This document shows, piece after piece, positions 1,705 through 51,445 of a DNA stretch of 64,000 bases. The stretch lies in the NCBI GenBank assembly GCA_947631185.1, contig CANRKJ010000003.1:20839-84838 (forward strand), read 5' to 3'. The number at the start of each line of letters is the position of its first letter. Within the stretch, counting starts at the first letter, position 1. This stretch comes from an uncultured Clostridia bacterium. GTDB lineage: Bacteria > Bacillota > Clostridia > TANB77 > CAG-508. Under the pieces are notes generated by a model. That model had not been told where the DNA came from. It did not search any database and saw nothing but the letters and a program-made list of their open reading frames with translations. A program made the position numbers and the translations under genes.

Positions 1705-1756
1705 CGCTTTTATTTTATAATAGGAAAGGATTACATTCTATTATAAAATAAAAGCG
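1705..1756. repeat. Palindromic intergenic repeat, copy A (long-stem variant)
   Basis: CGCTTTTATTTTATAATAGGAA / TTCTATTATAAAATAAAAGCG arms flank an AGGATTACA loop. The 17 nt to its left (ATCTTTGCGCGTAGCGC) are identical to the flank of copy B. Confidence 0.85.
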
Positions 1757-1770
1757 GATTACACATCCGC
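1754..1770 (-). terminator. Rho-independent terminator of the 1775..2263 gene
   Basis: On the minus strand, GCGGATgtgtaATCCGC is followed by TTTTATTTT. Confidence 0.7.
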
Positions 1771-1774
1771 CCTA

Positions 1775-2263
1775 TTATTCACCTTTTCTACTGTTTCTTA
1801 TAGTTTCTAATGTGTTTTGTAATTTAACTTCTACTTCATTAAGATTTTGTGCAAGTTGTAAAATAGTATTTTCAATTCCACCAAAAACTTCATCTTCATA
1901 TTTTAAAGCATCTTGAGTAATATTTCTATATATCTCATTTGCTGCAGTCATTATATCATCTTTTTTCTCCAATGCCTTCTGAGTAATTTCATGTTCATTT
2001 ATCATTGAAATTATTCTATGATCAGCTTCATCTAAAATATCTTTAGCTTCCTTTTCAGCTTCAGCAATTATTCTTTCTCTTTCTTCCTTAATCCATTTTG
2101 CTTGTTTTAACTCGTCTGGAGATTTTAGTCTAATATCTCCAATAATTTCAAGCATTTCCGCTTTATCTTTTTGAGTTATTACACCTCTATCTATTACGGG
2201 TATTATATTTATTTTTTCTAACATATCTTCCAACTTATCCAATAATGCAAAAATTTCCATCAT
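1775..2263 (-). CDS. Hypothetical coiled-coil protein (E/K-rich, ATP-synthase-b / V-ATPase-G-like low complexity)
   Basis: A 162-aa ORF abuts the rsmD stop. It is heptad-like and E/K-rich (KEERERIIAEAEKEAKDILDEADHRI). I recognise no catalytic motif. Confidence 0.5.
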   Translation of the reverse strand: MMEIFALLDKLEDMLEKINIIPVIDRGVITQKDKAEMLEIIGDIRLKSPDELKQAKWIKEERERIIAEAEKEAKDILDEADHRIISMINEHEITQKALEKKDDIMTAANEIYRNITQDALKYEDEVFGGIENTILQLAQNLNEVEVKLQNTLETIRNSRKGE

Positions 2264-2827
2264 TTACCCCTTTCGCTTTAAGAAAATTAAAGATACTCTA
2301 CCATATTTTCTAATACTGTATATATCTACTTTCTTATCTTCAAGTCCACTTTTTATTTTATTTTCATTATCTGTTTCTATAATAATAATTCCATCATCAT
2401 TTAATAAATCATTTTCAATAATATACTCAGTAGATTCTTCTGCTAAATCTGTTCTATATGGTGGATCTAAATAAACAATATCAAACTTTATTCCTTCATT
2501 TATAAAATCCCTTAAAGCTTTTAAATGTTTCTTGTTTATAATTTCAACATCATCAAAGCATTTTGTTTTTTCAACATTTTTTTTTATAATTTCTATAGCT
2601 TTTCTTGATTCATCACATAAAATAGCTTTTTGAGCTCCTCTGCTTATTGCCTCTATTCCTATTGCTCCACTTCCAGAAAATAAATCTAAAACCATGCTAT
2701 CAATAATTTTTACAGAAATAATGTTAAATAAAGATTCTTTAACTCTATCTAATGTAGGCCTAGTTACTTCATAACCTTCTAATGTATAGAGTTTTGTTCC
2801 CCTCATTTTTCCGCCTATTATTCTCAT
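2264..2827 (-). CDS. rsmD: 16S rRNA (guanine966-N2)-methyltransferase RsmD
   Basis: MRIIGGKMRG start, SAM motif DLFSGSGAIGIEAISRGA and DPPY motif (VYLDPPY). Confidence 0.9.
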   Translation of the reverse strand: MRIIGGKMRGTKLYTLEGYEVTRPTLDRVKESLFNIISVKIIDSMVLDLFSGSGAIGIEAISRGAQKAILCDESRKAIEIIKKNVEKTKCFDDVEIINKKHLKALRDFINEGIKFDIVYLDPPYRTDLAEESTEYIIENDLLNDDGIIIIETDNENKIKSGLEDKKVDIYSIRKYGRVSLIFLKRKG

Positions 2828-3056
2828 ATATTACCTCTATAATATTATACACATATATTTTATTCTAAAAATTAATAAAGTCAATAACATTAACAAAATT
2901 GTAATACATACTTAATTCTATTGTAATAAATGTTATACCTTGCTTATTATATATCCCATATTCTTCATTGTCAACAAAATAATTTTAACTAATTTTCTTA
3001 GAAACCTTCTGCTAAATTGTTGATATACTAGAAAAATTATGAATACTTTTTCAATA

Positions 3057-3100
3057 TATAAAAAAACATTCAAAAATTAGTAGATTAATTTTTGAATGTT
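3057..3100 (-). terminator. Rho-independent terminator after divIVA
   Basis: Stem AACATTCAAAAATTA / TAATTTTTGAATGTT spans 3065..3100. It is followed on the minus strand by a T-run (plus-strand A-run 3059..3066). Confidence 0.7.
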
Positions 3101-3104
3101 TTAA

Positions 3105-48815: not shown

Positions 48816-48888
48816 AATATTATCCCTCTTTCTTTCTTTTTTTAACTCAATATATAATACCATAATTTGCTAGTATAATCAAGTTTTT

Positions 48889-49953
48889 TTATAATTTTAA
48901 TTCAATTAATTCCTTTTCACTTTTAGTTAATCTTTCACATTTAATTCCACCAACTAAAACTGTATCTTCAATTCTAATTCCATATTTTCCAGGGAAATAA
49001 ACTCCTGGTTCATCTGTAATTACCATATTTTTTTTCAAAATAAAATCATTTTTATGACTAATTGTAGGTGCCTCATGGATATCCAAGCCAACGCCATGAC
49101 CAAATGAGTGAAATAATTCATAATTATTTTTTTGATAATTATATACTCTATATGAAATTTCTGTTTTCAAATTAACCCCATCTCTTAAAGATTTTAATAG
49201 AGTTTCTTGTTCTGATAAAACAAATTTATAATTTTCTTTAAATTCCTCTGGTGCACTACCAATATAAATTGTTCTTGTACAATCTGAACAATACCCATTT
49301 ACTTTACATCCAAAATCAATAAGTAAAGTCTCATTTCCTTCTATTTTTTTATCAGTTGGAACTGCATGCGGAATTGATGAATTTTTTCCTGAAGCGACAA
49401 TTGTATCAAAAGATAGATCATCTGCACCAGCTTTAATCATAAAATCTCGCATCTCCTCAGCTATTTCCTTTTCTGTCATTCCTATTTGAATATACTTTAA
49501 TATATATTCAAAACAATCATCAGTGATTTTACATGCTTTAGATATATTTTCTATTTCTTGATTATCTTTAATAATCCTCTGTTTTTCAATTATACCTTCT
49601 GTTTCAACCAAATTAACTTTATATTTTTGCAACATTTTTTTGTATTCTGAATAAACTACATAGTTTTCCTCAAAACCAACATTATCAGGTTCAGGGAAAA
49701 AACTTTCGTAATCTGTTTCTGATAAAGCTTTAACATCATAAACAACAATTTCATCATCTATTGTTAATAAATTGTTTACACCTTCAATATATCTTGCATC
49801 AGTTAAAAAAATATTTTCTGATGAATTAACCAAAAGAGTTCCTTCAGCATCAATTGAAGTAAGATATTTTATATTCACAGGATTTGAAATAATCATACCT
49901 TGAATATTATGTTGCTTCAATTGTTGTTTTAAATCTAAAATTCTTTCTTTCAT
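48889..49953 (-). CDS. M24B family Xaa-Pro aminopeptidase/dipeptidase
   Basis: Creatinase-like N-domain plus M24 metal ligands (DFGCKVNGYCSDCTRT, HGVGLDIHE, EPGVY, RIEDTV). Confidence 0.88.
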   Translation of the reverse strand: MKERILDLKQQLKQHNIQGMIISNPVNIKYLTSIDAEGTLLVNSSENIFLTDARYIEGVNNLLTIDDEIVVYDVKALSETDYESFFPEPDNVGFEENYVVYSEYKKMLQKYKVNLVETEGIIEKQRIIKDNQEIENISKACKITDDCFEYILKYIQIGMTEKEIAEEMRDFMIKAGADDLSFDTIVASGKNSSIPHAVPTDKKIEGNETLLIDFGCKVNGYCSDCTRTIYIGSAPEEFKENYKFVLSEQETLLKSLRDGVNLKTEISYRVYNYQKNNYELFHSFGHGVGLDIHEAPTISHKNDFILKKNMVITDEPGVYFPGKYGIRIEDTVLVGGIKCERLTKSEKELIELKL

Positions 49954-49969
49954 TTTATCTCACCCTTTT

Positions 49970-50746
49970 CTATTTAAATGGTTTCATAATAAGATTACTC
50001 AAACTATTACATAAGTTAATAAAAGTAATCCATATATAATTTTCAGGTAGAAATATACAAGCAATAGCACTTATAACTAAAAAAGGTCCAAAAGCAATAT
50101 ATTCGTCTCTTTTCTTTAATATAAGTATTCTAACAGCTAAGATAACCACTGAACAAATTGTTGCAACAAAGAAAGCTAATAATGAAACTTGAGCTACATT
50201 ACTTGCACCTAAAAATAACCCTATAGCACCCATAAATTTCACATCACCTAATCCCATAGCTTCTTTACCTGCAATAATTCCACCAATTAAAGTTATTATT
50301 CCAAAAATTCCAGCTCCAACAAACATACCAAATAACATATCTTTCGCCATATTTATATTATTATATCCACAAATTACTGTAAGTATTAAGCCAAATTCAA
50401 AAATTGTCATATTTAATCTATTTGGTATAATTCTATATTTAAAATCTATAAAAAATGCACTTACAAGCATTGGTATCAAAATTATATATTTTAATAAATC
50501 TAAATTTTTAAAAAAATCATTTTCAAAACCAAATTTATATAATAAAAAAACATATAAAGTTGCTATTATTATCATTATAATGTAATTAAAATCATAATTT
50601 TTAAGTACATCTATAAAAAAATGTTTTGTAAATATTTTTTCACTTTTTACTAATTTCTCATCAACATATGAAATAAATTTTCCTACGACTAATCCTATAA
50701 ATGCAATTAAAACAAACCACAAAATATGTAAATTATTAAAATACAT
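49970..50746 (-). CDS. Prepilin (type IV) leader peptidase, A24 family
   Basis: Polytopic protein with GLGDVKFMGAIGLFLG. Confidence 0.75.
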   Translation of the reverse strand: MYFNNLHILWFVLIAFIGLVVGKFISYVDEKLVKSEKIFTKHFFIDVLKNYDFNYIIMIIIATLYVFLLYKFGFENDFFKNLDLLKYIILIPMLVSAFFIDFKYRIIPNRLNMTIFEFGLILTVICGYNNINMAKDMLFGMFVGAGIFGIITLIGGIIAGKEAMGLGDVKFMGAIGLFLGASNVAQVSLLAFFVATICSVVILAVRILILKKRDEYIAFGPFLVISAIACIFLPENYIWITFINLCNSLSNLIMKPFK

Positions 50747-50768
50747 TTTCTATCCTACCCACTTTTCA

Positions 50769-51266
50769 TTATTTTTCTAAACTTTTATTATATTTTTTAA
50801 TAACCAATTTTTCTATTGGTCTTTTAATCATTGTAATCCATATATCCTTTTTTGCAATCGGCTCAACTAAAATTGAAAACATATTTAACCTATTTCCACC
50901 AATAACATCTGTAAAAATTTGATCTCCGACAGTGGCAATATTTTCGTAATTCATATTTAATATTTCCTTACCTTTTTTTAATCCTTTAGACAAAGGTTTG
51001 CATGCTTTATAAACATATTCTATATCTAAATATTTAGACACCTTTTCTACTTTTTTTGTTTTATTGGTATTAGATACAATAACAAATTTTATTCCTTTTG
51101 ATTTTAGATTTTCACACCATTCTTTTGCTCCTTCAATAATATTCCAATCAAAATCAATAAGTGTATTGTCTACATCTAAAATTAAACCATTTATATTATA
51201 TTTTTTTAAAAATTCTATATCAATATCAGTAACTTTTTTACAATAATATTTTGGATATAATATCAT
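50769..51266 (-). CDS. YqeG-family HAD-IIIA phosphatase
   Basis: LILDVDNTLI (DxDxT), VIVSNT, VGDQIFTDV. Confidence 0.8.
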   Translation of the reverse strand: MILYPKYYCKKVTDIDIEFLKKYNINGLILDVDNTLIDFDWNIIEGAKEWCENLKSKGIKFVIVSNTNKTKKVEKVSKYLDIEYVYKACKPLSKGLKKGKEILNMNYENIATVGDQIFTDVIGGNRLNMFSILVEPIAKKDIWITMIKRPIEKLVIKKYNKSLEK

Positions 51267-51397
51267 TTCTCCCCCACTCGATTACATTTTTTATGCATAA
51301 CTTTTATTTTTTATTAAATATAACATTTATATAAAAATGTTATATTTTCATGTAAAGTCCACGCTCGTTGTCCGTGCGTGAAAATTGTTAGTGAAAC

Positions 51398-51445
51398 TTT
51401 TTTATATAATAGGAAGTTTGGATAACTTTTTTAATATATAAAAAG
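51398..51445. repeat. Palindromic intergenic repeat, copy E (degenerate)
   Basis: The left arm TTTTTTATATAATAGGAAGTT is intact. The right arm has decayed to AACTTTTTTAATATATAAAAA. The flank GTGAAAC resembles the copy C flank GCGAAAC. Confidence 0.6.

Follow-up and report, generated by a model that had tools for sequence, protein, structure and literature searches.

What is the 41-nucleotide (nt) palindrome that recurs between the genes of an uncultured gut bacterium, each time next to a second hairpin? The question arises from a 64,000-nt stretch of contig CANRKJ010000003.1, called the window below, which is a chromosome segment with 26% GC from a spore-forming Clostridia bacterium of the rabbit gut and carries the genes of SpoIVA, SleB, the S10-spc-alpha ribosomal operon and PyrG. 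The palindrome, designated P4 here, is not a stand-alone repeat but the terminal hairpin of a non-coding multi-hairpin element of 145-190 nt. On balance we regard this element as probably a non-autonomous mobile DNA element that homes to terminators by way of single-stranded hairpins, with P4 as one of its ends.

The exact P4 41-mer is found at 21417-21457 and 39843-39883, a copy with one change in the loop lies at 23122-23162, and degenerate copies are located at 1705-1756, 51398-51445 and, inverted, 9450-9490. A search for the 41-mer with three mismatches allowed gave 0 matches in 100 shuffles, and the original prediction of a dispersed intergenic repeat family is borne out by six copies against none expected by chance. 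Its list of copies is also complete for the window, since a covariance model made from related copies and run over the whole window with filters off matched exactly these six, all at E <= 1e-4, while the next match had E = 0.24. The matches extend over 1641-1751, 21371-21458, 23077-23163, 39793-39884 and 51361-51444 on the plus strand and 9448-9532 on the minus strand.

A scan of species-representative genomes for the 12+12 nt stem with a 3-9 nt loop gave at least 117 loci (cited below by L numbers) in at least about 60 assemblies. More than 100 copies in about 60 assemblies share a common architecture. The P1-side (5′) end reads (A)GAACAAA and is followed by P1, a long hairpin with the outer stem GAACAAAT/ATTTGTTC and a 3-nt bulge, by P2, a second hairpin rich in AAATTT, by a conserved TGTGCA linker, by P3, an optional GCG(A/T)AGC mini-hairpin, and by P4, which consists of TTTTAT, the palindrome and ATAAAA. 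The longer modular element that had been suspected from the flanks is accordingly this P1-P2-linker-P3-P4 unit with P4 at one end, and the three pairs of left flanks that had been distinguished among the window copies are real, being P3 or linker pieces of different subfamilies.

Only one copy in the window, copy A (1586-1756, plus strand, covariance-model score 68.8 bits), is full-length. Its P1 spans 1586-1654 (GAACAAAT-CGGAAAGC...GGCTTTCCG-TGA-ATTTGTTC), its P2 1662-1685, its TGTGCAT linker 1686-1692, its P3 (GCGC-GTA-GCGC) 1697-1707 and its P4 1706-1755, all on the plus strand, and it is 89% identical over 168 nt to the copy at L117 in another rabbit-gut genome and 73-76% identical to several others. 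Relative to shuffled sequence copy A folds with z = -7.6 on the plus and z = -8.0 on the minus strand. The P3 sequences GCGAAGC and GCGTAGC, seen at 1697-1707 and at many other loci, match the unusually stable DNA mini-hairpin d(GCGAAGC), a likeness that hints at a single-stranded DNA form and is no test of one.

The five remaining copies have kept P4 and have partly or wholly lost P1-P3. Copy B (21400-21458, plus strand; exact match and covariance model) is truncated to P3 (GCGCGTAGCGC) and a perfect P4, with the hairpin of the upstream gene beside it at about 21461-21500. Copy C (23114-23163, plus strand; sequence match and covariance model) has a perfect P4 (23122-23162) with an AATTA loop and only a short left remnant, and adjoins the rplQ terminator found by a terminator scan at 23164-23186 on the minus strand. 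Copy D (39793-39884, plus strand; exact match and covariance model) retains a decayed P1 3′ strand together with P2, a CTGTGGAATAC linker and a perfect P4, and the scan places the spoIVA terminator next to it at 39888-39903 on the minus strand. Copy F (51361-51445, plus strand, 36.2 bits, E = 1e-4) is decayed: pieces of the P1 3′ strand and of P2 survive, the right arm of its P4 is degenerate, and the sleB hairpin stands beside it at about 51446-51472. Copy E (9448-9532, 46.2 bits, E = 1e-6), the sole copy on the minus strand, contains the 3′ half of P2, a CTGTGGAATGC linker and a compensated P4 variant, TATTATAGG/CCTATAATA, at 9450-9490; a hairpin at 9411-9449 adjoins it on the P4 side, and it is 97% identical to copies at L093 and L057.

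The helices of the element are under structural constraint. When 65 distinct copies were aligned to a model with P2 and P4, standard pairs filled 96.4% of the cells against 86.9% in shuffles, 18 of the 31 pairs changed on both sides against a mean of 8.3 in shuffles, and the covariation score was 0.229 against 0.063 in shuffles, of which 0/500 reached 0.229, and at most 0.041 with slid partners; these figures are flattered by the model-fitted alignment, and the compensatory changes are still plain in a raw MAFFT alignment. Both-side changes were seen in 10 of the 13 pairs of P2, and the outer stem of P4 varies between copies yet stays complementary, as in TTTTGAT/ATCAAAA and TTATTTAT/ATAAATAA.

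This constraint bears on the idea that P4 is a palindromic site in duplex DNA which a conserved protein binds as a dimer, for instance a regulator, an Xer-like recombinase, or a partition or nucleoid protein. Inverted arms of 12+12 bp around a variable 5-bp centre, an arrangement kept across orders, would suit such a protein, and of the first 15 bases of the Bacillus subtilis dif site 14 are matched by the 3′ arm of copy E. A dimer sitting on two half-sites would not, however, enforce complementarity within each copy of an outer stem that otherwise varies, the half-sites face the opposite way from those of dif relative to the centre, and P1 and P2 too are conserved as helices and not as sequences, which together make a duplex site highly improbable. 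Resemblances to the CodY box, dif and attC were dropped since spacing or geometry did not fit.

Observed separately was that, with respect to the other parts of the element, the loop of P4 is found either way round in the CANRGE loci (TAGAA 16 vs TTCTA 10; e.g. L001, L005, L010 and L044) and also differs between the CAUWFE loci L038 and L092 (TTTGGAGAA vs TTCTCCAAA), while no loop flips were seen in the TATCA/TATAA subfamily. Such flip-flop is like that of hairpin ends or of quasi-palindrome template switching.

The second hairpin beside P4 was addressed through the gene context. On its P4 side the element faces a convergent gene in 75 of 95 cases, usually 20-100 nt away, and the gene on the P1 side usually starts downstream, so that the usual order is gene, terminator, P4, module, promoter and next gene, with the element antisense in the P1-to-P4 convention. 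A strong hairpin adjoins P4 in 73% of the cases with a convergent gene vs 15% of those without. Because they are mostly absent where no convergent gene is present, the adjoining hairpins are attributed to the genes as their own terminators, and on the same ground they were ruled out as a part of the element. Every copy in the window had been claimed to lie beside a gene terminator. All six do adjoin a hairpin, and the terminator scan, which covered copies A, C and D, accepted those three at 1773-1751, 23186-23164 and 39903-39888, all on the minus strand, whereas the hairpins of copies B, E and F are visible in the sequence, that of copy B with a loop of 9 nt.

P4 itself has a T-run before it and an A-run after it on both strands; since its hairpin is followed by an A-run and no U-tract it is not an intrinsic terminator, while the neighbouring hairpins do qualify. 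Read in the direction of the gene, the layout is the terminator hairpin of the gene, the T-tract TTTTTTAT, the P4 core hairpin ATAATAGGAAAG-loop-CTTTCCTATTAT, the A-tract ATAAAAAA, the optional GCGAAGC-type mini-hairpin, a CACA linker, P2, and P1 ending in ...ATTTGTTCT. At copy A, the terminator assigned by the scan to the open reading frame (ORF) 1775-2263 lies at 1751-1773 on the minus strand, and its T-tract TTTTATTTTAT is the outer arm of P4. It had been proposed that the palindrome supplies the U-tract of the terminator, but in view of the empty site in relatives described below the T-run is more likely to be the terminator's own, captured into the outer stem of P4.

In Anaerosporobacter faecicola two T-box leaders (L015, 911-1186, 132 bits; L034, 269-556, 105 bits) are directly followed by a P4 whose loop has 8 nt and by a module of about 50 nt that the two have in common, which places the element inside a regulated 5′ untranslated region. 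From P4 standing behind the terminators of T-box leaders it follows that terminator structure matters and not the end of a gene.

These positions could also be explained by a terminator accessory kept by the host, in which P4, alone or together with its module, forms a long hairpin right behind the U-tract that insulates the next promoter or protects the 3′ ends of read-through transcripts, and which has spread mainly by gene conversion. It would account for a P4 that remains perfect in copies B, C and D as the other parts of the element decay, for P4 and loop being uniform per genome across module subfamilies, for the same positions being occupied across species downstream of rplQ, spoIVA and sleB, for a stem invariant across classes and for the promoter of the next gene lying close behind. 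P4, however, comes after the U-tract and has no U-run of its own, so it cannot act in normal termination; in 20 of the 95 copies the P4 side is without a convergent gene, and an adjoining terminator hairpin is missing from the majority of these; relatives lack the element at the same sites; and decayed copies exist. An accessory of this kind is therefore rated as quite unlikely.

With regard to promoters, a perfect TTGACA-17-TATAAT upstream of the S10 operon (39768-39796, minus strand) was noticed in what aligns as the decayed P1 3′ strand of copy D (ATTTGTCAAC vs ATTTGTTGAC), and the -35 box of the next gene is 12-35 nt from the element remnant at copies B and C. The closeness of promoters to remnants could reflect exaptation, or decay that stops at an essential promoter.

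That the element moves is indicated by several kinds of comparison. The clearest is an empty site: contigs of four other gut metagenomes join L077 positions 6716-6736 to 6916-6919 with 7-39 bases between, skipping the element at 6750-6916. The empty site reads GAGC|ATAAAAAATACG (...GAGC|ATAAAAAATACGTAAG...) and the filled site ...GAAC|AGAACAAA...CCTATTAT|ATAAAAAATACGTAAG..., which means that the terminator and the TTTTTTAT tract on the gene strand existed before the element arrived. The insert runs from the P4 core to ...TTTGTTCT and directly follows TTTTTTAT, with no duplication. At L066 a 400-nt spacer that bears the element separates mnmE and mnmG, for which relatives have a spacer of up to about 20 nt; in runs of L066 relatives the element is found elsewhere with 2 of 173 positions different (about 99% identity), while the flanking mnmE and mnmG pieces differ by 13-18%. 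The window is likewise without the copy that L058 has between secY and adk. Orthologous sites also hold different subfamilies in different species (L028 vs L093, copy D vs L079, copy F vs L072). At the position orthologous to copy C, downstream of rplQ, L049 has a P4; at that of copy D, downstream of spoIVA, L079 has a decayed copy from another subfamily; and at that of copy F, L072 has a full element. Head-to-tail arrays occur at L093 (three units), L057 and L004, with the junction ...CCTATTATA|GAACAAA..., and partial second units at L117 and L030. The third unit at L093 (4100-4560) was in addition seen to be chimeric, the P1 5′ half being that of units 1-2 and the sequence from the P1 3′ strand on that of another subfamily, which suggests recombination between subfamilies within the P1 loop. 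A strand preference was also recorded, the P4-to-P1 (gene-sense) strand being the G-rich strand, taken as the lagging-strand template, in 74 of 88 cases (74 vs 14).

Movement as single-stranded DNA, or through another single-stranded intermediate, with the hairpins as recognition features would bring these observations together. The internal A-tract would pair with the T-rich tract behind a hairpin and so direct insertion exactly behind intrinsic terminators; pairing is proposed as the targeting rule because the external arm of P4 is target DNA and the internal arm element DNA, and the two are complementary even in variant copies. Comparable pairing is known from the guide and cleavage site of IS200/IS605 elements and from the R′ and R′′ boxes of integron attC sites. 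The far end of the element, a hairpin followed by TTTGTTCT (ATTTGTTCT), is terminator-like and would give rise to head-to-tail arrays, tandem insertion being explained by the resemblance of this end to the target. After insertion copies would decay from the P1 side. The enzyme might be a transposase of the HUH/Y1 type or else a site-specific recombinase, with its gene lying elsewhere. The perfect palindromy of P4 and its flipped loops are most readily accounted for by template switching or gene conversion between the arms and between copies, as suggested by the mixed loop orientation within one genome and by P4 with its loop being uniform within a genome across module subfamilies. Still more specific, and only tentatively put forward, is a new class of terminator-homing element that selects its target by base-pairing, turns the T-tract into its outer stem, is served by an enzyme with a single hairpin specificity across Clostridia and Tissierellia, and carries Clostridiales-2, an Rfam family treated below, as its cargo or body.

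A number of observations weigh against a mobile element. No transposase or recombinase was linked to it: neither IS200/IS605 TnpA-like ORFs nor a RAYT were found with phmmer and a motif search over the window plus the 117 loci, together about 0.8 Mb, which agrees with the original prediction that the window holds no transposase; ORF clustering over the 117 loci gave no recurrent transposase, and the ORFs directly behind P4-only copies are housekeeping genes. Neither 72,556 plasmids nor 50,697 phage records contained the element, IMG/VR gave only 4 matches, and on account of this absence nothing points to a vehicle for horizontal spread. There is only one clean empty site, from organisms that are 85-95% related and not strains of one species. 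A flanking ATA(A) match of at least 3 nt is present in 27 of 69 copies (39%) vs 6-9 of 69 (about 12%) in shifted controls, a weak duplication signal. The cases in which gene and replication direction are discordant split 3 vs 3, so the strand bias is inseparable from gene orientation. An invariant P4 stem across two classes is unusual for selfish repeats and could point to a host function, and three of the six window copies are at sites occupied in other species, which long retention could explain as well as repeated insertion. Genes of large serine recombinases were noted 0.1-1 kb from elements (10 ORFs at 7 loci, two of the loci beside a tRNA gene; regions L089 2000-3200, L054 2780-3750, L101 320-3560 and L106 5015-6676); they look incidental, and are probably integrated islands beside tRNA genes and not partners of the element.

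The listed loci come mostly from uncultured gut Clostridia of rabbit, sheep, deer, chicken, mouse and human, and one metagenome-assembled genome from rabbit has at least 32 perfect P4 copies. Named genomes with the P4 stem are Anaerosporobacter faecicola and Oliverpabstia in the Lachnospirales, Alkaliphilus and two Geosporobacter species in the Peptostreptococcales, and Sedimentibacter in the Tissierellia. The stem is thus common to two classes of Bacillota, with each lineage having its own attached module, and a motif confined to the window or its genome can be discarded.

In Geosporobacter (L059) and Alkaliphilus (L071) the module linked to P4 is the Rfam family RF02937, Clostridiales-2, with 84.9 and 79.9 bits against a gathering threshold of 58.6. 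The RF02937 model opens with AUAAAA, the outer arm of P4, and runs in the direction away from P4. These two loci have the same layout of P4, A-tract, hairpin and CUGC(A)C-type linker as in the window, but the Rfam model omits P4 and treats the motif as a small RNA (sRNA). At the gathering threshold only tRNA-Trp was found by Rfam in the window, with no Clostridiales-2, and copy A searched at E <= 10 gave noise such as microRNA hairpins and no RF02937. The sequence had originally not been recognised as a described family; this stands for the window module, which is without an Rfam match, whereas in GC-richer relatives the module of the same palindrome is Clostridiales-2. This motif is a candidate sRNA of Weinberg et al. 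2017, and the main text of that paper (PMC5737381) has no mention of the motif and none of multi-copy, terminator-abutting, tandem or truncated behaviour. A full-text literature search with the arm sequence returned nothing relevant and one with 'Clostridiales-2' nothing useful.

The Rfam entry raises the alternative of a multi-copy sRNA gene family of an extended Clostridiales-2 type, transcribed in the gene sense from P4, or from just behind it, to the far hairpin, with P4 as a promoter-proximal or 5′ structure. Apart from the filing of the Geosporobacter and Alkaliphilus module as sRNA and the AUAAAA start of its model, the far end of the GC-rich families, a short hairpin and then a T-run, is as expected for such a gene, covariation is strong, and the sequence is present in RNA-labelled runs. 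One G.U pair, at the base of P2, is kept by 58 of 65 sequences, but its strand is the P1-to-P4 one, opposite to the proposed transcript. Outside that pair G.U (19) vs A.C (12) gives no consistent strand, and Clostridiales-2 copies have their wobble pairs on the other strand. No sigma-70-type promoter was found at a fixed position in either direction, in or before intact elements, and the consensus sequences of sigma-H, E, F, G and K did not fit by eye. Element depth in wastewater and isolate 'RNA' runs equals that of neighbouring genes, and low-depth contigs continue into the flanks; for the organism of the window itself, a search over every kind of run listed no RNA run. Most window copies are truncated, and orthologous presence and absence, tandem arrays and 99% identity across diverged hosts do not speak for an sRNA gene family either, so that we consider it unlikely.

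As a mobile element it was compared with the small repeats of other bacteria. The original prediction had likened it to REP/BIME or MITE sequences, of which the selfish-DNA behaviour remains valid and the defining features do not. Neither GTAG nor CGTC, the REP tag, is present in any of 129 copies, P4 being flanked by TTTTAT and ATAAAA; arrays are head-to-tail (L093, L057 and L004) and not the inverted pairs of REPINs and BIMEs; and the ends AGAACAAA... and ...CCTATTATATAAAA are not inverted copies of each other as MITE terminal inverted repeats would be. IS200/IS605 derivatives (PATEs) and REP/REPIN sequences are mobilised by Y1 HUH transposases (RAYTs in the case of REPs). With these families the element has in common that terminal inverted repeats and a clear target duplication are lacking, that each end has a hairpin and that the tandem junction looks like the right-end/left-end junction of a circle; the lagging-strand template bias and, in the one filled/empty pair, insertion immediately 3′ of a short T-rich target complementary to an internal segment would fit as well. 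It differs in that its end hairpins are unlike each other, in the missing GTAG/CGTC tag and in that no TnpA or RAYT was found in the window or the 117 loci; its proposed guide is 3′ of the hairpin and simply extends the stem, and REPs are genome-specific while P4 spans classes.

Class C group II introns have their insertion point immediately behind the hairpin and T-run of a terminator, in sense orientation. The element resembles them in its position beside Rho-independent terminators, but is 150-190 nt long and lacks intron domains, a reverse transcriptase and a GUGYG 5′ end. The same position is held by SPRITE repeats, which adjoin Rho-independent terminator structures (PMC3184786), from which P4 differs in not being itself a terminator. 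A likeness in kind is also shared with bcr1, chromosomal interspersed repeats of about 155 bp in the Bacillus cereus group with compensated hairpins and no known transposase (PMC6542083, PMC6199540, PMC3184786). Compared by description and not by sequence, the element agrees with bcr1 in its length of about 155 bp, in hairpins with compensatory changes, in its many partial copies, in positions that vary between strains in bcr1 and between relatives here, and in an association with TTTAT. It differs from bcr1, which is confined to a single species group and lies between direct repeats of the 5-bp sequence TTTAT, in its weak duplication signal, its end palindrome invariant across classes and its insertion exactly behind terminator T-tracts.

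Among the neighbouring genes, the minus-strand ORFs 1775-2263 and 22730-23044 beside copies A and C encode 162 and 104 amino acids and have no NCBIfam family match, and an exact-sequence look-up of the 162-amino-acid protein gave three records only, all apparently from the window's own rabbit-gut source. The ORF of ribosomal protein L17 (23204-23713, minus strand) encodes 169 amino acids, with the L17 domain at residues 83-169 only, so that the protein is extended at its N terminus or else the ORF, called from its first start, is too long. The plus-strand ORF 52540-54264 (574 amino acids) encodes a repeat protein; within it, at 52852-53457, units of 33 nt (11 codons) that are 65-100% identical are repeated in tandem at least 13 times.

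Small structured non-autonomous repeats are already known as a kind from REP/REPIN, bcr1, PATE and SPRITE sequences, and one branch of the present element is in Rfam as Clostridiales-2. As far as checked, what is new is the full modular element, an end hairpin invariant across two classes, the capture of terminator T-tracts, the head-to-tail arrays and the connection of Clostridiales-2 with a repeat element. In gut Clostridia that have been little studied, hundreds of intergenic regions are marked by the element, and its invariant hairpin of 29-41 nt is a handy metagenome marker for these lineages. It explains the double-hairpin look of terminators in these genomes and bears on the prediction of both terminators and sRNAs, and its link to Clostridiales-2 alters the probable meaning of a curated Rfam 'sRNA' family. 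If pairing with the T-tract is true, it would be a simple and possibly reprogrammable way of inserting behind genes without harm, and would point to an enzyme with a very old and stable hairpin specificity.

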